A stretch of 64,000 bases of DNA from a virus: IMG/VR virus record IMGVR_UViG_3300030202_003282, positions 1-64,000 of that record. One strand, 5' to 3'. Below are positions 4,537 through 63,879 of the stretch, piece by piece (the stretch's first letter is position 1; each line of letters opens with the position of its first letter). Below the pieces are notes generated by a model that was not told the DNA's origin, made no database searches, and saw nothing but the letters and a program-made list of their open reading frames with translations. Made by a program: the position numbers and the translations under genes.

Positions 4537-4565
4537 GTAATTGAATACAATTAACTTTAAATAAT

Positions 4566-4600
4566 AAAGGGTGGGATTTTTTTCCTGCCCTTTTTATTTT
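4566..4600 (+). terminator. Intrinsic terminator
   Basis: AAAGGGTGGGA-tttttt-TCCTGCCCTTT followed by TTATTTT. Confidence 0.85.
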
Positions 4601-4613
4601 CTATTCTTCAGTA

Positions 4614-4628
4614 TTTTTTGTATATTAT
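4614..4628 (+). promoter_or_regulatory. TTTTGTATATT promoter-like motif
   Basis: TTTTTTGTATATTAT directly after a terminator and upstream of ATG 4667. Confidence 0.55.
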
Positions 4629-4666
4629 TTATGTAATATATTATTACCTACAAAAAATTTTATAAA

Positions 4667-5221
4667 ATGGCAAATAAACATATTTTAAGCTTGGAGGTTC
4701 AACCAGTTGCCAATTGTGAAATATTAAGTATAAAAGATACTTCACAATATACAGATGATTTGGCCATTGATTGTCCTGAATTATTAATTACTACTCCCGG
4801 TTTTAATTCTCCAACATTAATAAAAGTTCAACCATATTTTGATTTAAATTTAAGTTCTTGTGCATTAGCATTACAAACAGAACAATGTGGAACAACAAGA
4901 ACACATATCCCTGATGGTGTATATATAATTAGATATAGTGTTTCACCAAATGATAAAGCATATGTAGAATACAATCATTTAAGAGTAACAACTCTTTTAT
5001 CTTCTTATTATTCAAAATTATGTGAAATAGATGCATTACAATGTGAACCAGACAGAAGCAAAAGAGAAATTGTTTTAGAAATGAACTACATAAAAACTCT
5101 TATTGATGCTGCAGTAGCAAAAGTTGAATATTGTCAAAGCCCAGATGCTGGAATGGATATTTATAATTTTGCAAAAAAGAAATTAGAAAAAATAACATGT
5201 TCTACAGCATCATGTTGTTAA
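4667..5221 (+). CDS. Cys-rich structural protein (184 aa), possible tail hub/collar component
   Basis: ORF track. IPDGVYIIRYSVSP motif and C-terminal helical Cys region resemble crAss-like hub proteins. Confidence 0.55.
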   Translation: MANKHILSLEVQPVANCEILSIKDTSQYTDDLAIDCPELLITTPGFNSPTLIKVQPYFDLNLSSCALALQTEQCGTTRTHIPDGVYIIRYSVSPNDKAYVEYNHLRVTTLLSSYYSKLCEIDALQCEPDRSKREIVLEMNYIKTLIDAAVAKVEYCQSPDAGMDIYNFAKKKLEKITCSTASCC

Positions 5222-5227
5222 ATTTTT

Positions 5228-5239
5228 AAAACCAATAAA
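5228..5239 (+). promoter_or_regulatory. AAAACCAATAAA leader element, copy 2
   Basis: Directly abuts ATG 5240; identical to 1263-1274. Confidence 0.5.
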
Positions 5240-5455
5240 ATGAAAAGCGGTACTAGTTGTGCAAGTTGTGGAAAAAAGTTTACATGCAATTGTCAAAAAG
5301 CAGTAGCTACAAATGGAAAAACAGTATGTAAAAGTTGCAAAAATAAGTATAACAGTAAAAAAATTATGGTGCAAAAAGGTAGTAATGGAAGAAACAGAAC
5401 ACGTAATTTACAAAACACTATTAATAAAGCACAAAGAAATCTAAACAGATCTTAG
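5240..5455 (+). CDS. Small basic Cys-motif protein (71 aa), possible Zn-binding
   Basis: CASC...CNC...CKSC pattern followed by a K/R/N-rich tail. Confidence 0.65.
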   Translation: MKSGTSCASCGKKFTCNCQKAVATNGKTVCKSCKNKYNSKKIMVQKGSNGRNRTRNLQNTINKAQRNLNRS

Positions 5456-5465
5456 ATAAAAAGTA

Positions 5466-6572
5466 ATGGAAGAAGAAAAATTAATTAAGCAAATTAAAAC
5501 TGAACAAAAGTTTGCAGATGTTGCTCATAAAAGCTTTAGAGAAAGTAAATATGGAATAACATCTTGTTGCCCATTTGATTTAGATAACATTGCAATTAAA
5601 AAATATTTATGCAATTGGCAACTATTAAAAAATAATGTACCAGCTGCAATTATTTCTTTATCCAGTGAGATTTTTGAACCGTCTGGACCCATTGATCCAT
5701 GTACAGATACTAACGCCCCATATTGGTGTGTAGAATGTGGATATGTTGAACCACCAAATGCTGAAAAATTATTAAATGAACTTAAAGAATTACAAAATAA
5801 ACTTATTGATCTTGAATCAGAAATCTCTGTTTTAACTTTAAATTTAGAAGAAAAAAATAAAGAATTAGAAGTATTTATTCAATTACAAAATGAATTGCAA
5901 GCTCAACAAGATGCTTTGCAAACTGAATTAAATGTTTTACAACAATCTCAAGCTATATTAGTTGAACAATATAATAATTTAAATTGTGAAGAGGATCCTA
6001 AAAACCCAGCATGTCAAGCATTAATGGTACAAATAAAAGATTTAGATGCACAAATACAAGCTTTAACTGATCAATTAAAAGATATACAGTCAGAAATTAA
6101 AAAGATAAATGAATCTATTAACAATCTTCAATTAGATATTCAAGAAATAATAAATAATTTAGCAGAATTAAATGCAACACTAAGTACTGTACTATTACAA
6201 ATTCAACTTATAGAGGAACAATTTTGTGATGATTCAGAATGCATTATAATAGAAGTTTTAGATACTAATGGAAATCCTGTAAGTAATTATCCTTTAGTAA
6301 TTAATGGGGGAAATGTAGGTGTAACAGATATTGATGGAATGTTGGTTTATTCAATACCTAATGCATCAATAGAAACTAATCATACATTACAAATATGTTA
6401 TTGTTTTACAACTGAAGGAAATTGTAGACAACAACATATAACAATAACAGTTCAAGCAGATGACTGTGCTCCAACATGCACTAAACCAACACCTGTATGT
6501 ACAGATGTAATAATATCTGAAACAATTATAGGAATAATGAAAGCTCCAACAGGTAAACCTCCAAGAGCATAA
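5466..6572 (+). CDS. Structural protein with long coiled coil and C-terminal beta-sandwich (368 aa)
   Basis: N-terminal KYGITSCC, about 150 aa of heptad repeats, then IEVLDTNGNPV...GVTDIDG (prealbumin/carboxypeptidase-regulatory-like fold motif). Confidence 0.65.
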   Translation: MEEEKLIKQIKTEQKFADVAHKSFRESKYGITSCCPFDLDNIAIKKYLCNWQLLKNNVPAAIISLSSEIFEPSGPIDPCTDTNAPYWCVECGYVEPPNAEKLLNELKELQNKLIDLESEISVLTLNLEEKNKELEVFIQLQNELQAQQDALQTELNVLQQSQAILVEQYNNLNCEEDPKNPACQALMVQIKDLDAQIQALTDQLKDIQSEIKKINESINNLQLDIQEIINNLAELNATLSTVLLQIQLIEEQFCDDSECIIIEVLDTNGNPVSNYPLVINGGNVGVTDIDGMLVYSIPNASIETNHTLQICYCFTTEGNCRQQHITITVQADDCAPTCTKPTPVCTDVIISETIIGIMKAPTGKPPRA

Positions 6573-6622
6573 AAAATGAAAAGATTAATACTACATATAG
6601 TAACTTGCTTGTTTGATAAAAC

Positions 6623-6635
6623 TTTTGTATATTAT
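6623..6635 (+). promoter_or_regulatory. TTTTGTATATT promoter-like motif
   Basis: TTTTGTATATTAT upstream of ATG 6679. Confidence 0.55.
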
Positions 6636-6678
6636 AATAGTGGTATGATAGAAAAAATAACTACAAAAAATTAAATAT

Positions 6679-9600
6679 ATGTTACCAGTTTCCGGAAATA
6701 ATAAACCTTGTTCACCAATTTCATCAAATTGTGTGGTTTGGCAAGGACCAGATTTACCTTGTATAGATTTATGTAATGGAGATACCATCAGTGATGTAAT
6801 AGCTAAATTAGCTGAAAAATTATGTGACCTTATTGATAGTAGTTGTTTATGTGAACCAGACATGTCCGATATTAAACTGGAATGTTTAGTAAATGTAAAT
6901 CCAAATGCAGAAACTGTACAAGAGATTATACAAGCTATTATAGATTATTTATGTACGTTAGGGCCCGGAGATGATAGCAAAATAACAGTACAATTACCCG
7001 CATGTTTACAATATACTGATGAAGCTGGAAATCCAGTAACTGTTCTTCCAATAGACCAATATGCTTTTTTACTTGCAAATAGAATATGTGATATCTTAAC
7101 TTCTATTGCAATTATTAATGAGCAACTTGCTGATCATGAAAATAGAATTGTTATACTAGAAAATTGTGTTTTGCCATGTGATGGTAGTGGTGGATCATCT
7201 TCTCAAATAATGTCTGTATGTATTAATGCTGGTAACTTAATTGATGCAGATGTTTTATTAGCAGGATTAGAGTCAGCATTTTGTTCTATAGTTGCTGCAC
7301 TAGGTGATGTTAATTTAATAGAAAATGCATATAATGCTCAATGTATATTTGCTAATACAGATCTTTTATCTGGTCAAGGTACATATGGTGGATTAACAGG
7401 ATGGCAAGCAAATAGTACATTAGCACAAACTACTCAAAACCAATGGTTAGTAATTTGTGATCTTTATAATGCAATAGAAAATATTCAAAATAATTGTTGT
7501 GATTCAAATTGTGATAGTATAATTTATGGATTTGTACCAAGTTCTACTGGTGGTGGCGGTGGAGCAAATTCAATACTTGTTAATTTTACTAGTACAACAA
7601 TTCCAGCAGGATGGACAGATTGTGGATCAACTGTAACAATTACAGATTCTAATGGTCAAAGCATTAGTCAAGGATTTAATGCATTAGTAGAACAAAATAA
7701 TAATGCTGGTTTATCAATTACTATATCATCATTAAATGTTGCAACAGCAGTGCAAGTAACTGTTGATTTTTGCTTAACAGATGGAACAGATACATGTCAA
7801 AATAGTTCTTCACAAACTGTAGCATTAGGATATGCTTGTCCACCTGTAACAATAGTTCCAGCCGGTGCAGGAACTAGTGCAGTTGCTACATGGAATAATC
7901 AAATAGGTGCAACAGCAAGTTATAATTTAACGGTAGAAACAACTACGGGAACACAAATTTGGACTTCAGGTCAACTAACCAGTCAACCACCAAATGTTTC
8001 AATTACAATTCCAAATTTAACACCCGCAACAAATTATGTAGCTGTATTAACATTAACAGTTAATGGTGTTGGTCAAACATGCCCTGGAGTAACATTTACA
8101 ACTGCAGGAAATGCTTGTACAGTTGTTCAAACAGATACTGTAGCAACAGGAGCATTTGGAGTAGGATATGTATATTTAGGAAGAGTATGTTTTGGAGATG
8201 CTTTTGATACTTATTATTATGATTCAGGATCAAATCAAATTATTAAAGAAAGTATTGCAGGACCATGTCCAGGAGGCTTTCCAAATGATATACAATTACC
8301 AATTAATGGTGCATCTGCTGCAGTTATTTATTCACCAGGTACATTAATGGCTGGAGCTCAGGATAAATTTATATATCCTGATCTAGATTGTGAAGGTACA
8401 ATATATACTTTTCCTGCAGTTGGAGTTCAAGGCTGTTGGATATATATAGGACAACAAGTTATAGGAACCACTACATATTATGCGTATACATATTGGGATA
8501 TTGCTGGTGGTAATGCACATAACGGCCCAGGAGCTATAGTATATTGTTGTGAATGTCCATTATCATTATTAGGTCCACAAACTTTAAGATCAGTAAACGG
8601 AGCAGCAACTAATTTTACATTACCATTTATTTCAGGAGCTGTTAATCCTACATTTACAATCACTGTACCACCTACGCATGGAACATTAACACAACCAAAT
8701 GGCGTTAATGTACCAGATTTTATATATACACCAAATACTCCAAACTATAATGGTGTAGATACATTTACAATTGAATTAACAGATAGCTCTGGATTCTGTG
8801 TAGGAAATGATATATTACAATATGGTATTTATTTATTGGGTGGAACATCTGCAGGTAATAAAAGATTAGATACAAGTGTATATTCATTTATTGATACAAA
8901 CACAAAATCTCTAGCAGAAGCAACAAGTATTAAAGCAGGTTTAGAAACATGGTATGCAGAATATCAAGCATCATGTCCAAATAATACAGGTAATTTATAT
9001 ATTATTCCTGTAACTGATTCAAATTGGGTAAGTGCATATACAAAAGCTGTATGGGATGTTAATGCATCAGGAATTTTAGCAGCAGGTCCAGAATGGAATG
9101 AAATAAAAGTTTTACCTGATTCATGGACAGGTGCAGGTCCTGCAACCCCTCCAGATTCAGCATGGATTATAGCATTTTCAGATACACAGGCTGCAATACC
9201 ATTTCATCCAAATACATTAATAGAAGGATGGGGCTTTTTAAATACACTGCAACCTACACCTGAATATAAGACAGCATATGTAGAAGCATATGATCTTAAA
9301 AATAATACAGAAAATTCTGCTTGGGCAACAGCTCAAAATTTATCTGGAACACCAGCGTTTCCTGATGGTTATAATCTTACTTATTATCCAACAACTGTAG
9401 GAACAACAGGAAGTGATGCAGCTGCTTTATTAATGGCATTAGGTGCTTTAGAAGCAAGAATGATACCTCCAACTCAATGGGGATGGAATACAGCTGTTGA
9501 TTTAACTCCTTGGTTAATGCAAGGTATAGGAATATTAAACCCATATGAAGGTGCTGAAACAGGTGTGGTAGGTTTACAAATTGACCGTTTATTAGATTTA

Positions 9601-10131
9601 AATGTATGGGCTTATTTAGATCAAACCTCATTTAATGTAACTCAATTAAAAGATGATTTAAATAGTCAAATTATACCGCTAGAAGGATGTGGAGATCCTG
9701 TAGGACCAAGTTATTATACTGCAACTCCTTGTGGTGAACCAGCTCCAGTTCAAAATATTCAAACTGCTGGAGAACATGCCGTAGGAGAAGCGTTAAAAAT
9801 AGATGGTGTATGTCATTCAATAACTGGTCCAGCTGAAGAAAATGAAAATATTCAAGAAGTACCATATGAAAATTGTGATACGTGTTTAGCTGATGAAACT
9901 TATTATTATGAAATAGAACAATGTGAAGGTGATCTTACTACTTCTATTCAATCAGCAACTGCATTAGTTGTAGGAGAAGCTGTTGAATTTGAAGATTCTT
10001 GTTGGGAAGTAATAGGTGGTGCAGAAGAAAATGAAAATGTAGCAGTTAATACTTTTGAAAATTGTGACTTATGTATAAAAGCTCTTGAAGAAGCTGCTGA
10101 AGAAGAAGATGAAGCAGAAGATGAAAGTTAA
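6679..10131 (+). CDS. Cys-rich fibre/adhesin-like virion protein (1150 aa) with FN3 and Ig/cadherin-like domains
   Basis: N-terminal PCSPISSNCVVWQGPDLPCIDLC module; FN3 signature (TSAVATWN...IPNLTPATNYVAVL); Big_9-like PTHGTLT...FIYTPN..YNGVDTFT; tandem C-terminal Cys repeat; acidic tail. Confidence 0.7.
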   Translation: MLPVSGNNKPCSPISSNCVVWQGPDLPCIDLCNGDTISDVIAKLAEKLCDLIDSSCLCEPDMSDIKLECLVNVNPNAETVQEIIQAIIDYLCTLGPGDDSKITVQLPACLQYTDEAGNPVTVLPIDQYAFLLANRICDILTSIAIINEQLADHENRIVILENCVLPCDGSGGSSSQIMSVCINAGNLIDADVLLAGLESAFCSIVAALGDVNLIENAYNAQCIFANTDLLSGQGTYGGLTGWQANSTLAQTTQNQWLVICDLYNAIENIQNNCCDSNCDSIIYGFVPSSTGGGGGANSILVNFTSTTIPAGWTDCGSTVTITDSNGQSISQGFNALVEQNNNAGLSITISSLNVATAVQVTVDFCLTDGTDTCQNSSSQTVALGYACPPVTIVPAGAGTSAVATWNNQIGATASYNLTVETTTGTQIWTSGQLTSQPPNVSITIPNLTPATNYVAVLTLTVNGVGQTCPGVTFTTAGNACTVVQTDTVATGAFGVGYVYLGRVCFGDAFDTYYYDSGSNQIIKESIAGPCPGGFPNDIQLPINGASAAVIYSPGTLMAGAQDKFIYPDLDCEGTIYTFPAVGVQGCWIYIGQQVIGTTTYYAYTYWDIAGGNAHNGPGAIVYCCECPLSLLGPQTLRSVNGAATNFTLPFISGAVNPTFTITVPPTHGTLTQPNGVNVPDFIYTPNTPNYNGVDTFTIELTDSSGFCVGNDILQYGIYLLGGTSAGNKRLDTSVYSFIDTNTKSLAEATSIKAGLETWYAEYQASCPNNTGNLYIIPVTDSNWVSAYTKAVWDVNASGILAAGPEWNEIKVLPDSWTGAGPATPPDSAWIIAFSDTQAAIPFHPNTLIEGWGFLNTLQPTPEYKTAYVEAYDLKNNTENSAWATAQNLSGTPAFPDGYNLTYYPTTVGTTGSDAAALLMALGALEARMIPPTQWGWNTAVDLTPWLMQGIGILNPYEGAETGVVGLQIDRLLDLNVWAYLDQTSFNVTQLKDDLNSQIIPLEGCGDPVGPSYYTATPCGEPAPVQNIQTAGEHAVGEALKIDGVCHSITGPAEENENIQEVPYENCDTCLADETYYYEIEQCEGDLTTSIQSATALVVGEAVEFEDSCWEVIGGAEENENVAVNTFENCDLCIKALEEAAEEEDEAEDES
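9709..10080 (+). repeat. Two tandem ~60-aa Cys-containing repeats at the C-terminus of the 1150-aa protein
   Basis: YY...C...IQ.A...VGEA....C..I.G.AEENEN......ENCD.C occurs twice. Confidence 0.8.
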
Positions 10132-10157
10132 ACATGAATAAATTAAAAAAATAAATT

Positions 10158-10727
10158 ATGGCTTGTGGAAATTGTAATACATGTAATAGTTCTGATCCTT
10201 GCGGATGTCAAGATCATGGCTTAACAACACCTTGTTCATATACTGATTGCATTGATCCTACTACAGAAAGATGTGATGAAGTAACATGTGCAGAATGTGT
10301 ATCATGGTGTGGTCCAACAACTGAAGTAATAAATTCAGAGGGAGAAAATTTTGTAATACAATCAGGTGAAAGACTTGATTCAATATTACAAAGAATGATT
10401 CATGTATTAGCTCAAGGTTTAAATCCATGTACATCAAGTAATTCTTCTTTACATGCAGTTCAAAATGTTTATGTTGGTGCAATTACTACTAACTCTATAA
10501 CTATTGTATGGGGTGGAGAATCAAGTGGTACAACAGGACTTGAAATATTACATGATACAGCAATAACACCTACGGGTTGGATAACTAGTTCTACACCAAC
10601 TGCTCCAGGAGTATTTAATTATACAGTAACAGGATTAGTTCCTGCTACTGAATATAAATTTAGAGTAGATGCTCTAGATGGTGTAGGAAGTTGTGAAAGC
10701 GTTATAGTTTATGCAAAAACATTATAA
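10158..10727 (+). CDS. Cys-rich N-terminal plus fibronectin type III domain protein (189 aa)
   Basis: MACGNCNTC...CGC...CAECVSWC; FN3 pattern ITTNSITIVW...YTVTGLVPATEYKFRVDA. Confidence 0.75.
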   Translation: MACGNCNTCNSSDPCGCQDHGLTTPCSYTDCIDPTTERCDEVTCAECVSWCGPTTEVINSEGENFVIQSGERLDSILQRMIHVLAQGLNPCTSSNSSLHAVQNVYVGAITTNSITIVWGGESSGTTGLEILHDTAITPTGWITSSTPTAPGVFNYTVTGLVPATEYKFRVDALDGVGSCESVIVYAKTL

Positions 10728-10729
10728 AA

Positions 10730-10805
10730 ACAACAAGTGATGGTTTGTTGGTTTTCTATCACAAACGTTGGGGGAGCTTTAATTATTTAGAGCTCCCTTT
10801 TTTTT
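10730..10805 (+). ncRNA. Candidate small structured RNA (hairpin with exposed 12-nt loop plus terminator hairpin)
   Basis: Stem GTGATGG(10737-10743)/CTATCAC(10756-10762) with loop TTTGTTGGTTTT, then a terminator. The loop is complementary to leader elements at 1263 and 5228. Confidence 0.4.
10772..10805 (+). terminator. Intrinsic terminator
   Basis: GGGAGCT...AGCTCCC stem followed by a T8 tract. Confidence 0.85.
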
Positions 10806-10833
10806 GAAAAGATATTAACAGGCAATCAACATC

Positions 10834-10846
10834 TTTTTTGTATATT
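10834..10846 (+). promoter_or_regulatory. TTTTGTATATT promoter-like motif
   Basis: TTTTTTGTATATT after the terminator and upstream of ATG 10875. Confidence 0.55.
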
Positions 10847-10874
10847 GCCATACTTTAAATAATACTTAAACCCA

Positions 10875-12080
10875 ATGGATGGATTAAAAAAATTAGTTTT
10901 AGATTCACTAAAACAAAAAAAATCTCCTGAAATTTCTGCTAAAAGATGTGGCATTAGTGTTGAAGAATGGTTGGAAGTTAGAAGGCAAATACGTGAAGAA
11001 GATTCTAGAAAAAGAGAAATAGAAAAATTTGAAGATGATGGAAATTACAGTCAAGCAATAAATCTTGAATCTGGTGAAGCCAGGTTTAATGCTAAAACAG
11101 ATATAGAACCTAAAAGTGCAAATGAAATAATAAAACTTTTAAAAATTGATACTAATGTTTGGAAACTTTCCAGTTATTGGAATAAACAAATGGGGGATCA
11201 TTGGAGAGTTTCTGCATTAGTTTCAAGAAAAAAATTTGATACAGAAACTGTTTTAGAAGATTTATTAAAAACTTGGAAGCCTGAAACTTATAGAATTCCT
11301 AAAGTCAAAATTAATCAAGGTAAAAGACAAAAAGTTTGTGGTGTATTATCTTTACAAGATATACATTTTGGAAAAGAAGGTAATTATACTATAGATAAAG
11401 ATTTTGAAGATACCATAATTAATCTTATTACAAGAGCATCTGCTTCTCATTATATAGAGAATTTATTTTATGTAGTAGGGGGAGATCTTATTAATATGGA
11501 TACATGGAATGGTACAACAACAAGTGGCACTTTTGTGGATAATAGTTGTACCGCCACTCAAGCCTATGTAACAGCATTTAATGCAATTCATTGGTCTATA
11601 AATTATTTAGCTCAGTATTGTGAAAAATTAACAATTGTATATATACCTGGTAATCATGATAGATTATCATCATTTCATCTTGCCCATGCATTATCTAAAA
11701 CTATAAAGAGTAAAAAGATAATATGGGATGTAGAATATGAAGAAAGAAAGGTTCATATGTATGGAGTTAACTTTAATGCATTTGAACATGGAGATGTTAA
11801 TAAAAAAAATACTCCATTAGTTTATGCAACTGAATTTTCAATAGAGTGGGGGAAATGTAAAAATAGAACATTATTTACAGGACATTTTCACAGCAATAAA
11901 AGAGTTGAATATATTACAGCAAATGAAGATACTGGATTTATTCACAAAACATTACCAAGCCTTTCAAGATCAGATTACTGGCATAAACATAATAAATTTG
12001 TTGGCAATAAAAGATCTGGAAAATTAGAACTGCAGGATCCAATAAAAGGAAATATATGTGAATTAACATTTTCACCATGA
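10875..12080 (+). CDS. Calcineurin-like metallophosphoesterase with possible N-terminal HTH (401 aa)
   Basis: Full motif set in order: DIHFG, GGDLI, PGNHD, EHGD, TGHFH. Confidence 0.85.
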   Translation: MDGLKKLVLDSLKQKKSPEISAKRCGISVEEWLEVRRQIREEDSRKREIEKFEDDGNYSQAINLESGEARFNAKTDIEPKSANEIIKLLKIDTNVWKLSSYWNKQMGDHWRVSALVSRKKFDTETVLEDLLKTWKPETYRIPKVKINQGKRQKVCGVLSLQDIHFGKEGNYTIDKDFEDTIINLITRASASHYIENLFYVVGGDLINMDTWNGTTTSGTFVDNSCTATQAYVTAFNAIHWSINYLAQYCEKLTIVYIPGNHDRLSSFHLAHALSKTIKSKKIIWDVEYEERKVHMYGVNFNAFEHGDVNKKNTPLVYATEFSIEWGKCKNRTLFTGHFHSNKRVEYITANEDTGFIHKTLPSLSRSDYWHKHNKFVGNKRSGKLELQDPIKGNICELTFSP

Positions 12081-12089
12081 TAAAACAGT

Positions 12090-12122
12090 AGCACTTTAAC
12101 TTTTATAAGTGCTCTTTTTTTT
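12090..12122 (+). terminator. Probable intrinsic terminator overlapping a promoter-like motif
   Basis: AGCACTT...AAGTGCT stem, then C and T8. The T tract continues as TTTTGTAAATTAT (12119-12131). Confidence 0.6.
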
Positions 12123-12141
12123 GTAAATTATAAATGTAGCT

Positions 12142-12702
12142 ATGATAAATAATTTTAAAAAACCTAATTTAAATGCCCCTAGATACAGAGAAAAAAGAAA
12201 CGGGCTCTTAAATAAAGAAATAATTGAAGAATTTAAAAGCAAAAAACCAGCTTATGCTAATATAGATAATGAAAAATTAAAAAAAATAATTGTCATGTAT
12301 AATAAAAATCTTTGGAATGGTGTAATAGAACACAGAGACGGTGTGGAATTACCTGATTTTTTAGGTTATTTATTTATTGGTACATGCCCTCCTGCTAAAA
12401 GCATTAATACAAATTATTCATTGTCAAAACAATATGGTAAAGTTTTACAAAATAAAAATTGGGAAACAGACGGCAATATAGGTAAAATATTTTATACTAA
12501 TTATAGCACAAGATATAGATTTAAAAATAGAGAGTTATGGAAGTTTACAGCAGTTAGAGATTTTAAAAGAGCCGTAGCTTCTAAATATCCAAAGAGTTGG
12601 ACAAAGTATATTGTGATGAAGAATAAATATAGAATAGCCGATCTATATAAAAATAATAAATCCAATAAGGATAAAGTAATTGATTATGACAACAATAAGT
12701 GA
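12142..12702 (+). CDS. IHF/HU-like DNA-binding protein of the crAss-like tail block (186 aa)
   Basis: Basic protein. Helix plus GVELPDFLGYLFIG resembles the HU/IHF V.L..FG.F motif. Location before ring and muzzle genes matches Crassvirales. Confidence 0.55.
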   Translation: MINNFKKPNLNAPRYREKRNGLLNKEIIEEFKSKKPAYANIDNEKLKKIIVMYNKNLWNGVIEHRDGVELPDFLGYLFIGTCPPAKSINTNYSLSKQYGKVLQNKNWETDGNIGKIFYTNYSTRYRFKNRELWKFTAVRDFKRAVASKYPKSWTKYIVMKNKYRIADLYKNNKSNKDKVIDYDNNK

Positions 12703-13933: not shown

Positions 13934-14830
13934 ATGAGTGTATCACATAAATATAGAACTTTTGATCAATTACTAGAAGACGTATCTATTGATTTTAATA
14001 CATATGCTTTAGAAGGAATGATTGATCCGCAACAATTAATTAAAGTTGCTACCAGAATAAATTATGATTTAGGATTAAAAATTCATAGAACTAAACAAAC
14101 TGTTTTAAATGTTGAACATAATAAAGTTAAATTACCTGCAGATTTTGCATATATGAATTATGCATTTATTTGTGGTGATTATACTATTTCACAAAAAATG
14201 CCATCTGGCACACATGTAGATACAACTAATCCTGTACCTTATGTTCCAGATCCAGGTTATACTGGACCATGTGAAGATCCAACATGCAATGATGTATGTG
14301 TTGTTCAACCTTGTGATGATCCAAATACAGCTTATCAAGTAATTCATAAAATAGGTTCATCTGAATATAGAACTTATACTATGTTTAGAAAATTAAGAAT
14401 TCAAGATGTTAATTCTGTTCAATGTGAATGTCCTAATATTACAGAACAAGCTGCAGATATTGCTGAAATAAGAGATGGTTGGTTAATAACTAATTTTAAA
14501 TCAGGTAAAATATACATTAGCTATCAAGGAGCAATGGAAGATGCAAATGGTAATTTACTTGTATTAGATCATCCATATTGTAATGAGTATTATGAATATG
14601 GATTAAAGCAAAGAATTTTAGAAAATATGATTTTTGCAGGAGAGCCTGTACAAAATCAATTAGCAATGATAGAAAATAGATATAGAGCATCAAGAAATAA
14701 TGCTTTAAGTTTTGTTAATACTCCAGATTTTAAAGAATTACAACGTGTATGGTGGATGAATAGAAATGCAATGTATCATAAATATTATGACATGTTTTCT
14801 AGCTCTCCTGTTTTAAGACCAACAAGATAA
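13934..14830 (+). CDS. Putative tail tubular/ring protein (298 aa, P22 gp4-like position)
   Basis: KVKLPADF and ITNFKSGKIYISYQG motifs; immediately precedes the muzzle gene. Confidence 0.6.
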   Translation: MSVSHKYRTFDQLLEDVSIDFNTYALEGMIDPQQLIKVATRINYDLGLKIHRTKQTVLNVEHNKVKLPADFAYMNYAFICGDYTISQKMPSGTHVDTTNPVPYVPDPGYTGPCEDPTCNDVCVVQPCDDPNTAYQVIHKIGSSEYRTYTMFRKLRIQDVNSVQCECPNITEQAADIAEIRDGWLITNFKSGKIYISYQGAMEDANGNLLVLDHPYCNEYYEYGLKQRILENMIFAGEPVQNQLAMIENRYRASRNNALSFVNTPDFKELQRVWWMNRNAMYHKYYDMFSSSPVLRPTR

Positions 14831-61916: not shown

Positions 61917-63776
61917 CTATTGAATTTCACAAGCTCCACCAGCACAAGCCAGTTCACCTGTTAGATTTGTTTCATCTTTTTCTTCAATTACTTTAGAAAG
62001 ATCTATTTCTTGTAAATGTATTAACATTTTTTCATATTCTTTTTTAGTAATATCTTGAAAAGGTGCTTGTTTGTATGTACCTCCATTATAAGGTAGTACA
62101 GATAATCCATTATAATATTTACGATTATCCCACATCCATTCACCTGCAGCTTCCCACTCATGTTCTTTTAAGCTAATTGTTGCAGAAACATTGTGTGTAT
62201 TAGATCCAGTTCTATGACCTGGTTTAATCCACTCTTGTGCTATACGCTTAACTCTATCTAACAATTGAAATGGAGATTCAGTTCTCATTATAGCTCCAGA
62301 AGGAGCTTTTTGAGGAATACTGATTACAGCTGTAGTATGAGGACTAAAATACTCATCTTCAACTAGTTCAGGGATATTCTTAGAGAGATACTCATAAATA
62401 GCTTCATTTTTACCTACACGTAAAGTACGTATATAATAATCATTATGCCAAGCATGAATACCAGAAGAAGTACCTAAAGTAAGAGATGTAGTTCCAGCAG
62501 GTTTTACAGTTGTTGTTCTAGCTGACTTGTTAATATCAATTAACTTTGCAATTCTAGAGTTTTCTCTCTTTACAAGATCTGCAGCTTTAGTCATGTCATA
62601 ACCTAATACAGCTCCGGATCCAATTCCTGTCATTGATACACCAATAAGTGCATCTTTTTCAGTTGTTTCTCTCCAGATATCTCTTAAATAATGAAAGTCA
62701 GTGTAACCAGCTTGCAATGTTCCAATAAAAGCTGCAGCTTTAACTCTTTCATTAAGATCTTCTTGAGATGTAATATTAGATACATTAACTTCACAAAGAT
62801 TACAGAATTGATATGGACGCAATGCAATTTCACAACAAGGATTAGTTCCCCAATCTTTATCATTATTAAAGTAAATACCAGGTTCACCAGCACCACTCTT
62901 TTCTACACGCTCCCAAAGTTTCATAAAAAATTCTTTAGTAATTTTATGTCTCATCAGGACAGCAGAATTATTAGCACGGCCACGTTGTGGATTTAATTCC
63001 CACCAATCACCAGATTTAGATGCAATCATATCATTATCATCAGCAGAAAATAAACTAATAAGTGCAGCTCTACGTATACCACCTGCTAATACAGCATCAG
63101 CAATATGACAAACAATATCATGAACTTCTAATGTTGTTAATTGATCACCATCCTCTTTACTTTCTAAAATACCTGTTAATTTAACAATGCATTCTTTAAG
63201 TGGTTGAGGTCCAGGTGCTTTACCACCAGATGTTACAAGTCTTGCACCTTTAGCACGAATATCTGAATAATCAAATTCAATACGAGATCCTTTACCATTA
63301 AGATAAGACTTCATAAGTACTTTAATAGAATCAGCCCAACCTTCAATTGAATCACCAATTAAAAATCTTCTGCTTCTTTTTACATAAGGTTTATTTATAG
63401 GAGGTAATTTAGCTACATGATGTTTTTGTACAGAATAACCTACACCAGTTCCTCCCAATAATAAGAACATAATCTCACTAAATGAGTCAATATGATCTAA
63501 TGGTAAATATGCACAGTTATAAATTCTATTAGGAGATATTTCAATTGGTTTACCACCAAATTGCATACTTCTCATAGAAGGAAGAACTTTTTTATCATAT
63601 ACCATTTTATAAACTTCTTTAATTTCAGAAGAAAGTTTAGGATACTTTTTAATATGCATGTTTTTATTTCTAGTAACTAATTCATGCCAGGTTTCCCTGC
63701 GGTTTAGTTCTGGAACAAATCTTGCATATTTCATATAGACAGTGATTTCACTTAGAATTTGATTGCTTAATTCCAT
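61917..63776 (-). CDS. nrdJ: Class II (adenosylcobalamin-dependent) ribonucleotide reductase
   Basis: IYNCAY, GGTGVGYSV, AGGIRRAALI, GTNPCCEI (radical Cys), TTVKPAGT and C-terminal CAGGAC redox pair. Confidence 0.9.
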   Translation of the reverse strand: MELSNQILSEITVYMKYARFVPELNRRETWHELVTRNKNMHIKKYPKLSSEIKEVYKMVYDKKVLPSMRSMQFGGKPIEISPNRIYNCAYLPLDHIDSFSEIMFLLLGGTGVGYSVQKHHVAKLPPINKPYVKRSRRFLIGDSIEGWADSIKVLMKSYLNGKGSRIEFDYSDIRAKGARLVTSGGKAPGPQPLKECIVKLTGILESKEDGDQLTTLEVHDIVCHIADAVLAGGIRRAALISLFSADDNDMIASKSGDWWELNPQRGRANNSAVLMRHKITKEFFMKLWERVEKSGAGEPGIYFNNDKDWGTNPCCEIALRPYQFCNLCEVNVSNITSQEDLNERVKAAAFIGTLQAGYTDFHYLRDIWRETTEKDALIGVSMTGIGSGAVLGYDMTKAADLVKRENSRIAKLIDINKSARTTTVKPAGTTSLTLGTSSGIHAWHNDYYIRTLRVGKNEAIYEYLSKNIPELVEDEYFSPHTTAVISIPQKAPSGAIMRTESPFQLLDRVKRIAQEWIKPGHRTGSNTHNVSATISLKEHEWEAAGEWMWDNRKYYNGLSVLPYNGGTYKQAPFQDITKKEYEKMLIHLQEIDLSKVIEEKDETNLTGELACAGGACEIQ

Positions 63777-63879
63777 ATTGATTGTTTTAAAATGTTAATA
63801 ATTAATACATAATTGATTACTTCATCAATTATTTGGTTTTTGTTGTGATGTGTATTATAAGATATAAAAATTTAATTTA

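Follow-up and report, generated by a model that had tools for sequence, protein, structure and literature searches.

A conserved 3′-UTR hairpin and a matching start-codon box in a probable crAss-like marine phage: a candidate RNA for control of translation by base pairing

The closest described parallels to the element reported here are RNAs that pair with short sites near start codons. CpxQ, SroC, DapZ and MicL, 3′UTR-derived sRNAs of Proteobacteria, are located at mRNA 3′ ends, use the terminator of the mRNA and carry a conserved seed upstream of the terminator hairpin. The enterobacterial sRNA GcvB directs a G/U-rich single-stranded seed (R1) against C/A-rich sites at or just upstream of the ribosome-binding regions of many mRNAs. 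The processed c4 antisense RNA of the temperate coliphages P1 and P7 is phage-encoded and structured; its loops pair with two short boxes before phage genes of a single operon, icd-ant, to block translation. Bacteroidota, the likely hosts of the phage considered here, to our knowledge lack Hfq. In this phylum, which does not use Shine-Dalgarno pairing, GibS and other sRNAs of Bacteroides thetaiotaomicron present a conserved single-stranded seed to translation initiation regions. Catalogued sRNAs of the same species include 3′UTR-derived ones that share the terminator of the parent mRNA (PMC7366714).

At 10731-10805 (+), a hairpin and the intrinsic terminator behind it form the end of the tail-fibre operon in an uncultured marine phage that is probably crAss-like (Table 1); positions are those of the window, the whole 64,000-nt stretch of DNA analysed, which belongs to a 116,753-bp genome. 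The element is the 3′ UTR of the 189-aa gene because the stop codon of this gene, at 10725-10727, lies 3 nt upstream; with its start at 10731 and the terminator ending at 10805, it is placed as a 3′UTR-derived base-pairing sRNA is, downstream of the stop codon and sharing the terminator of its parent. The same layout of stop codon, element and shared terminator is found in relatives. A 7-bp stem presenting a 12-nt loop ahead of a strong terminator had been proposed in a first-pass annotation of this DNA, and both the letters and RNAfold bear it out, at 10737-10762 for the hairpin and 10770-10805 for the terminator, where a G+C-rich stem-loop directly precedes a U-run on the transcribed strand, the hallmark of intrinsic (Rho-independent) termination. 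The inner stem, P2, consists of six Watson-Crick pairs and G10742:U10757. RNAfold assigns 10728-10808 a free energy of -28 kcal/mol (z -5.69; none of 200 shuffles is equally good); the loop has an unpaired probability of 0.89. The loop sequence, UUUGUUGGUUUU, occurs once in the genome. Strong terminators are absent between 4593 and 10770, and the two further terminators of the window, at 330-351 and 4566-4593, have no companion hairpin of this kind.

Table 1. Coordinates of the hairpin element, its parent gene and the predicted pairing sites in the window.
Feature	Position	Strand	Basis or remarks
Last gene of the tail-fibre transcription unit	10158..10727	+	189 aa, FN3 domain; Pfam fn3 1.6e-07; ORF list
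Outer helix P1, 5′ strand (CAAC)	10731..10734	+	RNAfold MFE
Hairpin stem P2, 5′ strand (GUGAUGG)	10737..10743	+	letters and RNAfold
Exposed G/U-rich loop UUUGUUGGUUUU (DNA letters TTTGTTGGTTTT), proposed antisense seed	10744..10755	+	
Hairpin stem P2, 3′ strand (CUAUCAC)	10756..10762	+	
Outer helix P1, 3′ strand (GUUG)	10767..10770	+	RNAfold MFE
Intrinsic terminator	10770..10805	+	12-13-bp stem 10770-10799, then 8 T to 10805
Leader box AAAACCAAUAAA	1263..1274	+	2 nt before ATG of 337-aa ORF (1277-2290); predicted loop duplex -11.2 kcal/mol
Leader box AAAACCAAUAAA	5228..5239	+	abuts ATG of 71-aa Cys-rich ORF (5240-5455); predicted loop duplex -11.3 kcal/mol
Weaker candidate site ACCAACAA	14818..14825	+	15 nt before ATG of 2310-aa ORF (14841); RNAduplex -12.0 kcal/mol, rank 2 of 105 leaders
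Looser box AAAAACCAAAUAA	63829..63841	-	52 nt before ribonucleotide-reductase ATG (63776); 3 nt before a two-codon mini-ORF

In relatives the stem covaries around a nearly fixed loop, the combination that the first-pass annotation had proposed to look for. The loop is identical in 54 of 57 distinct relatives, in which the flanking exonuclease is 57-91% identical, and about 16 nt (GGUUUGUUGGUUUUCU) are invariant across relatives. Among 58 sequences, 97% of P2 cells are paired, with double-sided changes at five of the seven pairs, and 84% of P1 cells, with double changes at two of four (e.g., ACGA/UCGU in relative L050); in the terminator stem, all nine counted pairs show double-sided changes. 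None of 500 shuffles reaches any of the five measures applied, and paired cells amount to 90.6% vs 43-57% in slid controls. P2 also reveals which strand folds: 94 of its 406 cells are G:U or U:G and 12 are non-pairs, and it is the + strand, the operon sense, that folds because the G:U cells would be A-C mismatches on the other strand.

The element extends to distant loci, defined by an exonuclease 44-58% identical to one representative that is itself 48% identical to that of the window. In 61 of 71 distinct upstream regions from these loci, compared with 2 of 79 control slices, a TTGGT loop is enclosed by an inverted repeat and a T-run comes next; the UUGGU loop core is kept inside 22 different stems, and a covariance model built on the window clade matches 44 of 80 distant loci. 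Minimum-free-energy folding by two scripts leaves the UUGG loop free in just 24 and 26 of the 71 regions, low counts that may be due to predicted competing folds with the terminator arm.

Over all 12 nt, through 11 Watson-Crick pairs and one G:U, the loop is complementary to the 12-mer AAAACCAATAAA, exact copies of which end 2 nt ahead of the ATG at 1277 and immediately (0 nt) ahead of the one at 5240, just as the first-pass annotation had it. The count of this 12-mer is by itself within chance: with at most one mismatch it has 6 matches vs 3.43 expected, a count that 14 of 100 shuffles attain. Its 8-nt core, AAAACCAA, is beyond chance, being found in 7 of 105 leaders (23 copies genome-wide) where 0.19 leaders are expected. 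The complementarity noted in the first-pass annotation is real, and the motif is enriched at starts, as core and not as 12-mer; the conserved candidate partner of the loop is the 8-9-nt AAAACCAA(C). The two structural-block genes named as targets both carry the box and belong to a wider set of at least seven leaders on both strands: ORF 1277 and ORF 5240 in the window and five outside it, namely a 441-aa ORF at 113960, a 104-aa ORF at 102293 and three minus-strand ORFs. A looser copy ascribed to the leader of nrdJ does exist on the minus strand at 63841-63829, but it is not at that start because 52 nt separate it from the ATG at 63776. Only 18 nt separate the ORFs between which the box of ORF 5240 lies, too few to house a promoter, and this box shares one predicted transcript with the hairpin.

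Inside this genome alone, the enrichment of the box over the AT-rich background is modest. An 8-nt complement in at least seven leaders is found for 2.2% of sampled genomic and 4.3% of intergenic 12-mers, a share that falls to 0.3% for 12-mers with at least three G/C, and 5 of 300 shuffled loops match the observed six leaders at -9 kcal/mol or better. The predicted loop-leader duplexes are weak (-7.6 to -12.3 kcal/mol). In four scored leaders the box is unpaired with a probability of 0.59-0.82, figures that leave out the leaders without AAACCAA (14841, 68928 and 89734).

Conservation among orthologs also supports the box. AAACCAA is present in all 47 distinct leaders of ORF 1277 orthologs, compared with 4 of 1909 background windows, at 0-8 nt from the ATG (mode 6-7), and in all 32 distinct leaders of the 441-aa gene; it is found in none of 60 distinct leaders of the exonuclease gene, used as a control. 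In the ortholog leaders of the two target genes the box mostly lies 4-8 nt upstream of the ATG. For the 441-aa gene, 29 of the 32 leaders contain the longer AAAACCAAC, and the next nucleotide is a purine in 29/29; both A and G at this position pair with a loop U. The box of ORF 5240 is retained in five of six ortholog loci, the sixth having no such small ORF at the site, and one ortholog box, AAAGCCAACAAA, still forms 12 pairs including one G:U. For most targets, just 8-9 nt are conserved. A conserved, accessible seed is accompanied by conserved complementary sites at initiation regions.

Where the loop has changed, the complementarity is kept. Four relatives have variant loops, L026 (UUUGUUGGUAUAU), L369 (UUGUUGGUUCU), L378 (UUGUUGGUAGC) and L357 (UUGGUUGGUACU), to which their cognate ORF 1277-ortholog leaders offer 9, 9, 8 and 9 Watson-Crick pairs, respectively; matched against 46 leaders of the window clade, the same loops find at least 8 pairs in just 5, 6, 5 and 0. 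The cases of compensation are few, and L369 and L378 count as one event because they are sisters. CCAA-repeat leaders in the trio L357, L366 and L405 fit all three loops equally, and a G-to-C change in the L334 loop has no mirrored change in the L334 leader. Within the window clade, the mean longest run is 8.06 for cognate and 8.03 for non-cognate loop-leader pairs, a comparison without power because the loops barely vary.

Set beside the known systems, the locus resembles each in part. Like CpxQ, SroC, DapZ and MicL, the seed precedes a shared terminator at an mRNA 3′ end, but one predicted target is on the transcript of the hairpin itself. Rfam 15 offers no relative: none of seven cmscan matches up to E 10 in 10000-11500 passes its gathering threshold (the best, RF00519 suhB/mmgR, scores 22.4 bits vs 41, E 0.07). 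GcvB (RF00022) is not among the seven, and the locus has no sequence or structure relation to it; the GcvB seed is in a linear region of a free-standing gene, whereas the present one is phage-encoded, in a hairpin loop of a 3′ UTR, with predicted targets that are the phage's own genes. No c4 homology was found in the same cmscan of 10000-11500, and the likeness to c4 lies in the proposed action, which would here concern at least seven leaders across both genome arms. GibS is an intergenic host sRNA with an extended 30-50-nt 5′ seed; its counterpart here is a 12-nt loop on a predicted phage transcript. The arrangement also recalls the Shine-Dalgarno/anti-Shine-Dalgarno pair, a short box 4-8 nt before the ATG with an exact complement in a conserved RNA, except that the complement is in a phage RNA hairpin and not in 16S rRNA: that of one Flavobacteriaceae (Winogradskyella) genome contains neither UUGGUU nor AACCAA.

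Searches for relatives and functions returned little. No cultured relative was found by blastn, tblastn or exonuclease searches of phage records: blastn gave no match for 10100-12100 and only five chance-level matches (E 2-8) for the 76-nt element, tblastn gave none for ORF 1277, and no exonuclease match reaches 32% identity. Cellulophaga phage phi14:2 has a partly similar gene order; over positions 50001-100000 of its record both elements are absent, the hairpin from the interval g076-g075 and the box from its 338-aa gene (no copy before g088), and the model scores best there, at 24.4 bits, on an ordinary terminator region. When bacterial and archaeal genomes were scanned for the 16-nt word of loop plus closing pairs, at least 120 stretches matched, and one (L204) of the 120 listed has the hairpin context. 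A search of this genome for a phage-encoded ribosomal protein S21 gave no match. Sequence searches of PHROGs, Pfam and PDB with ORF 1277 and the 441-aa gene were empty save for one sub-threshold Pfam match of the latter (GRDB, 16.9 bits, cut-off 22); the AlphaFold model of ORF 1277, from a 12-row alignment, is poor (mean pLDDT 56.7), and Foldseek found nothing in PDB at E 0.001 or better. Six RNA runs have small shares (0.05-0.12 of sampled words). Contigs of four runs on 9000-12200 are short, of low depth and 90-99% alike, and cover only scattered coding parts of relatives; none spans 10712-10925, a gap that is uninformative rather than negative, since such contigs cannot show transcript ends or levels.

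Our preferred explanation, to which we give a probability of roughly 55%, is that a 3′UTR-borne antisense RNA pairs with the boxes and tunes, probably represses, translation. We infer that the 3′ end of the tail-fibre operon transcript exists as a structured regulatory RNA, possibly released as a piece of ~75 nt. Its two-tier stem (P1 and P2) would keep the G/U-rich loop single-stranded directly before the operon terminator, free to meet the A/C-rich box AAAACCAA(C), which mostly occupies the place of a Shine-Dalgarno sequence, 4-8 nt before the start codon. A duplex of 8-12 bp would cover the ribosome landing site, and translation of the box genes would be tuned, most likely lowered, once tail-fibre transcripts accumulate. 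The logic of repression is not obvious, because the hairpin and the structural genes with a box are probably expressed in the same phase. The interpretation in the first-pass annotation, a regulatory RNA or mRNA contact tuning selected phage genes, is partly supported.

Other explanations separate the hairpin from the box, or keep the pairing and change its meaning. A phage or host protein could read the G/U-rich loop, stabilizing, localizing or autoregulating the mRNA, with the box an independent translation signal and the complementarity incidental. The roughly 16 invariant nucleotides do exceed the need of any one 8-9-nt box, the box has SD-like spacing and could act alone as an unstructured A/C-rich enhancer, and the transcription unit of the hairpin also codes for a small Cys-rich basic protein (ORF 5240). 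Yet composition is unlikely to yield two motifs, each conserved independently, that match as exact complements through a GG/CC core (for an 8-mer in a loop of 16 nt at 30% GC, the estimated chance is ~4e-4), and a protein would leave unexplained both the leaders that, clade by clade, bring altered loops back to 8-9 bp and the purine-only position after AAAACCAAC; we consider this account unlikely. If the pairing is real, it may instead be positive or architectural: the 3′ hairpin could dock on 5′ boxes, joining mRNA ends for ribosome hand-over, or a small RNA could serve as an adaptor by which SD-less host ribosomes choose box-tagged mRNAs. This would suit the position of the box, mostly 6-7 nt before the ATG, its presence at conserved virion-block genes, the sharing of one predicted transcript by the hairpin and one target, and Bacteroidia ribosomes that work without SD pairing, as two studies describe (PMC7797042, PMC9976891). 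The 75-nt element shows no part that looks ribosome-binding, a duplex spanning -16 to -5 is expected to hinder 30S binding, and the scheme has no known precedent in bacteria or phages; we regard it as a distinctly unlikely alternative. More speculative still is a phage-private system of translation addressing, in which AAAACCAA(C) would be a tag at SD distance and the phage hairpin RNA, not 16S rRNA, its dedicated partner, a gate or adaptor deciding when or whether ribosomes use the tagged starts, the pair being maintained across a family-level crAss-like group.

The hairpin adjoins a strong terminator and could be its accessory, adjusting pausing or termination efficiency, with the match to A-rich leaders a product of chance in an AT-rich genome; U-rich 12-mers do often find complements in such leaders (2-4% in the controls). 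An accessory of this kind needs a stem, not an invariant 12-16-nt loop, whereas here the stem drifts freely through 22 versions round a fixed loop core; the other two terminators of the window manage without such a companion, and we hold this explanation to be very unlikely. Least credible is an element acting as DNA: a cruciform or single-stranded hairpin promoter for a virion RNA polymerase, a signal for replication origin or packaging, or a site at which a protein recognizes double-stranded DNA both here and in the boxes. Phage N4 virion RNA polymerase initiates at hairpin promoters, short-stemmed DNA hairpins with a 3-nt loop that precede early genes. The present phage carries a 5444-aa ORF whose giant product may be related to virion RNA polymerases of the crAss type: 800 aa of it match 62 phage records, those listed all being crAss-type "putative RNA polymerase"; the match is weak, with 25.6% identity over 25% of the query (E 6e-7). 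Box and loop can also be seen as one double-stranded motif in opposite orientations. A promoter of the N4 type does not fit the 12-nt loop, the G:U cells of the stem (94/406) or the position at the 3′ end of a late operon before a terminator on the same strand. For DNA-level function in general, the mismatches implied by these 94 cells would weaken a hairpin in DNA; the boxes are strictly sense and mostly 4-8 nt before ATGs, one of them within the 18-nt inter-ORF spacer; and the phi14:2 study reports no common motif upstream of early transcripts.

The antisense reading, in which loop and box meet as RNA, is the one we carry forward, and literature searches found no description of either hairpin or box in crAss-like phages, in agreement with the first-pass annotation. 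The hairpin, its loop mirrored in the box, is a strong candidate for an RNA that would pair with mRNAs to control protein synthesis. Few viruses of Bacteroidota are as abundant as the crAss-like phages, and we know of no post-transcriptional control described in them. Their hosts initiate without Shine-Dalgarno pairing, which lends interest to how phage mRNAs are selected or timed. One conserved candidate RNA, its seed exposed and its tag placed at start codons, makes the hypothesis concrete and open to mutational testing, with compensatory controls built into the loop-box pair, and the hairpin gives viromes a new RNA family to be searched for. Should the pairing be confirmed, this would be, as far as the literature searches show, the first regulatory RNA of this phage order and a rare example of a phage sRNA whose regulon consists of genes of the phage itself.

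The phage genome, 116,753 bp at 29.8% G+C, of which the window forms the first 64 kb, is rated complete in its IMG/VR record, and the genome search found no ribosomal protein S21 gene in it. Part of a 5444-aa ORF matches, among the matches listed (62 records), solely putative RNA polymerases of crAss-type phages, at a distance (25.6% identity, E 6e-7). Searches of phage records with the locus, the element, ORF 1277 and the exonuclease found no cultured relative. The hairpin directly follows the stop codon of an FN3-domain gene and precedes a 401-aa exonuclease-like gene (phrog_704 match, 4.3e-41). Given the strong plus-strand terminators listed in the table, it is predicted to close a transcription unit of ~4600-10805 that includes ORF 5240, a 71-aa Cys-rich ORF; ORF 1277 (337 aa) is predicted to lie in the preceding unit.

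Features of the hairpin, its transcription unit and the leaders carrying the complementary 8-mer
Feature	Position	Strand	Remark
Outer helix P1	CAAC 10731-10734 / GUUG 10767-10770	+	from folding
Stem P2, 7 bp	10737-10743 / 10756-10762	+	one G:U among pairs
Loop, 12 nt, UUUGUUGGUUUU	10744-10755	+	followed by strong terminator
Intrinsic terminator	stem 10770-10799, T-run up to 10805	+
Strong terminators	330-351; 4566-4593; 10770-10799	+	terminator search
189-aa FN3-domain gene	10158-10727	+	stop codon directly 5' of element
AAAACCAA leaders in window	ORF 1277; ORF 5240	+
AAAACCAA leaders outside window	104-aa ORF at 102293; 441-aa ORF at 113960
AAAACCAA leaders, three ORFs	starts 94052, 97347, 97987	-	one an HNH endonuclease

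The first-pass annotation had described a hairpin with a 12-nt loop and a strong terminator behind it, and coordinates, folding and a terminator search agree with that description. Folding of 81 nt gives -28 kcal/mol (z -5.69), a value equalled by 0 of 200 shuffles. From 160 exonuclease relatives in viral contigs the best 80 (57-91% identity) were fetched; leaving out two cut at the contig end, 78 loci gave 57 distinct 92-nt slices. The loop is exact in 54 of these and carries one or two changes in the other three. Around it the stem covaries: in the alignment of the window with the 57 slices, 97% of inner-stem cells are paired and five of seven pairs are altered on both sides, as are all nine counted terminator pairs, and the outer helix is 84% paired. 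Each of five whole-structure measures was matched by 0 of 500 shuffles, and sliding the partners as a control lowered pairing from 90.6% to 43-57%. The 406 inner-stem cells include 12 non-pairs and 94 G:U or U:G pairs; since the latter would be A-C mismatches on the opposite strand, the alignment points to a structure of the plus strand, in the sense of the operon, and so to RNA. The genome holds a single copy of the loop word. When the window is searched with a covariance model of the alignment, one site scores as a copy (97.2 bits), and the runner-up (23.5 bits) is just the terminator at 4542-4609. No Rfam family reaches its threshold (best suhB/mmgR, 22.4 vs 41 bits). That the element is a functional RNA structure is very probable.

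More distant loci were collected with a representative exonuclease 48% identical to that of the window and then with a second, more distant one (80 and 80 further loci, 10-kb flanks). Of 71 distinct upstream regions in the first set, 61 hold an inverted repeat of 5 bp or more, free of interruptions, that encloses a loop of at most 22 nt with TTGGT and is followed by a T-run, vs 2 of 79 control slices taken 2 kb off. The ten misses include four with bulge-interrupted stems (L303, L330, L331, L355) and two without a T-run (L369, L370); in the genome of L309, an inserted gene has moved hairpin and terminator, which were recovered elsewhere in the record. With hits counted below an E-value of 0.01, the window-clade model matches 44 of the 80 first-set loci, the site being identical throughout, and one locus has an additional weak second match. 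There are 22 different stems, two or three perhaps spurious (e.g., GTCAG/CTGAC, GGAGG/CCTCC, AGAGGG/CCCTCT, GTAGAG/CTCTAC), around the retained TTGGT; thus the stem is free to vary while the loop core (U)UGUUGGU(U) is retained across a family-level range.

Several further features of these loci deserve mention. At L446 (record G009, ~16661), hairpin and terminator are retained with an inserted gene between them and the exonuclease gene. In many elements of the distant clade A (L292-L371), the terminator A-tract and 5' arm (AAAACCCC...) can pair with the loop GGUUU in MFE folds, which is why MFE scripts report a free loop in just 26 of 71 regions; either an artefact or a competing fold could be behind this. 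In L292-L320, the exonuclease ATG is preceded at ~20-40 nt by a conserved word, TTTATACACCATATACCAA, which may be a promoter or leader element of the clade. In prokaryote genomes, a scan with the loop word gave one true copy among the 120 matches listed. This copy, L204, comprises the full hairpin and terminator; its contig of 62 kb is assigned to a Gammaproteobacteria MAG but is probably a phage contig mis-binned with the bacterium. Neither UUGGUU nor AACCAA was found in the 16S rRNA of one Flavobacteriaceae genome.

The loop is complementary to a short A/C-rich box in leaders. As the first-pass annotation stated, ORF 1277 and ORF 5240 each have an exact copy of the 12-mer AAAACCAATAAA ahead of the ATG, at distances of 2 and 0 nt (1263-1274 and 5228-5239), and this 12-mer can form 11 Watson-Crick pairs and one G:U with the loop. 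The looser copy that it placed in the nrdJ leader exists (63841-63829, minus strand) but does not stand at the start of that ribonucleotide-reductase gene, whose ATG is 52 nt downstream. Its two proposed targets both carry the box, yet the set is wider: the complementary 8-mer AAAACCAA is present in 7 of 105 leaders, in line with the enrichment at starts for which it had proposed a count (0.19 leaders expected; 23 copies genome-wide), and has the top enrichment ratio among 8-mers present in at least 7 leaders. The core AAACCAA has 47 genomic copies on both strands, seven of them 4-12 nt before a called start.

Other box-like sites were seen. Upstream of the ribonucleotide-reductase gene, a mini-ORF (ATG AAG TAA, 63817-63825, minus strand) begins 3 nt after box-like AAAAACCAAATAA and is followed by a second (ATG TAT TAA). 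ACCAACAA at 14818-14825, 15 nt before the ATG of a 2310-aa ORF, has a predicted duplex with the loop of -12.0 kcal/mol, second best of the 105 leaders. In many of the relatives' loci L001-L080 (among them L007, L008, L015 and L021), the upstream CDS ends in TGTAAACCAATAGAAAT (Cys-Lys-Pro-Ile-Glu) ~50-70 nt before the loop, which puts a box-like AAACCAA near the loop on one RNA; this word is absent in the window.

Counts in a single genome are exposed to chance. An 8-nt complement in at least 7 leaders is found for 2.2% of sampled genomic 12-mers, 4.3% of intergenic ones and 0.3% of those with at least three G/C; RNAduplex puts 6 of 105 leaders at or below -9 kcal/mol, vs a mean of 1.24 for shuffled loops, 5 of 300 shuffles reaching 6. 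On these controls the single-genome match is suggestive only, and conservation of the box is the stronger argument. Orthologs of ORF 1277 (66-93% identical) carry AAACCAA in 47 of 47 distinct leaders, vs 4 of 1909 background windows of 50 nt from these loci, with 0-8 nt (mode 6-7) between box end and ATG. Orthologs of the 441-aa gene carry it in 32 of 32, with the conserved box AAAACCAAC in 29, each time followed by A or G (29/29), either of which pairs with the loop U. The box of ORF 5240 is retained in five of six loci, one of which reads AAAGCCAACAAA and still forms 12 pairs thanks to a G:U. By way of negative control, AAACCAA occurs in 0 of 60 distinct exonuclease-gene leaders. In front of ORF 1277 orthologs a TAnnTTTG-like element comes first and the box follows it, hence in the 5' UTR; the box of ORF 5240 lies in an 18-nt spacer separating two ORFs. 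Both positions suggest a box that works at the RNA level. A palindrome, TTGCA..TGCAA (1228-1243), overlaps the promoter-like element of ORF 1277 and recurs in L081-L160 ~35-60 nt before the ATG with differing arms that keep their complementarity (GTACA..TGTAC, GACA..TGTC, GGCCAATTGGCC, TGCA..TGCA); it may serve as an operator or form a hairpin.

The weight of the case lies in the exact complementarity of the two conserved cores, AAAACCAA or AAAACCAAC in the box and (G)UUGGUUUU in the loop; by our own estimate from base composition, the chance of such an 8-mer match within a 16-nt loop is ~4e-4. Across 16 window-clade genomes, the mean longest run is 8.06 for cognate and 8.03 for non-cognate combinations, because the loops hardly vary. 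Four variant loops have lost the 3' U-run and face leaders complementary to the remaining part.

Variant loops and the leaders of the ORF 1277 orthologs in the same genomes
Locus	Loop	Cognate leader	Run	Window-clade leaders reaching 8+ nt
L026	UUUGUUGGUAUAU	ACCAACAAA	9 nt	5/46
L369	UUGUUGGUUCU	AACCAACAA, x2	9 nt	6/46
L378	UUGUUGGUAGC	ACCAACAA, x2	8 nt	5/46
L357	UUGGUUGGUACU	ACCAACCAA, adjoining ATG	9 nt	0/46

Of these loci, L369 and L378 are sisters; canonical-loop relatives of L357 have leaders with similar CCAA repeats, and a G-to-C change in the loop of L334 has no counterpart in its leader. Clade-A genomes have the hairpin, and in all five that yielded a match the ORF 1277 ortholog is preceded by the box in doubled form, AAACCAAA(c)AAACCAAA; one of five clade-A records of one search, 69% complete, gave no match to the ortholog. 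Hairpin and box are both absent from the stretch searched of Cellulophaga phage phi14:2 (50001-100000 of its record). Variant loops, doubled box and co-absence lend moderate support, short of proof, to direct loop-box pairing.

Most economically, the element can be read as a regulatory RNA that lies at the 3' end of the tail-fibre operon and works by base pairing; for pairing with the boxes as its mode of action we put the probability at about 0.55-0.6. The element would stay part of the operon mRNA or be freed as a ~75-nt piece; on selected phage mRNAs its loop would mask the box, at about -16 to -5, and the duplex would modulate initiation, repression being the default expectation at that position. 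It might act in trans, or in cis in the case of ORF 5240. The product of ORF 5240 (several CxxC/CxC motifs, a very basic tail) has a weak, sub-threshold zf-dskA_traR match (19.2 bits vs a cut-off of 24.9); box-tagged and encoded in the hairpin's own unit, it is a possible nucleic-acid-binding partner.

Pairing explains the strand-specific stem covariation and the loop invariance as well as the position and orientation of the boxes and the clade-specific loop-box matches; it does not account for the purpose of a virion operon regulating virion genes. Its rivals see in the hairpin a protein-binding element, a positive or adaptor role or a mere accessory of the terminator, or have the element act at the DNA level, a reading against which the plus-strand signature of the stem and the placement of the boxes speak. 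The regulatory RNA proposed in the first-pass annotation is thus upheld in part, by the covarying stem, the invariant loop and the conserved boxes, with a conserved partner that is an 8-9-nt core and not the 12-mer.

Among working systems, GcvB comes closest: its G/U-rich seed is described as targeting C/A-rich 5'-UTR elements, and one of these doubles as a translation enhancer (PMC4474525). In the host phylum, translation initiation regions are reported as pairing targets of GibS, and a catalogue of 3'UTR-derived sRNAs exists (PMC7366714). In phi14:2, two long intergenic regions, at the g004-g005 and g005-g006 junctions, are reported as transcribed above most genes (10.1101/2020.03.07.982082) and are possible non-coding RNAs of a cultured crAss-like phage; the words 'hairpin', 'terminator' and 'leader' do not occur in the preprint's text. 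Full-text literature searches found no description of such a hairpin/box element in crAss-like phages, in agreement with the initial claim of novelty. The element is best classed as a new RNA family among base-pairing regulatory RNAs, a known class. Its setting is unusual: a phage-encoded RNA and a phage-private box at Shine-Dalgarno distance, in a host phylum without Shine-Dalgarno pairing, which ribosomes of Bacteroidia are reported not to use (PMC7797042, PMC9976891).
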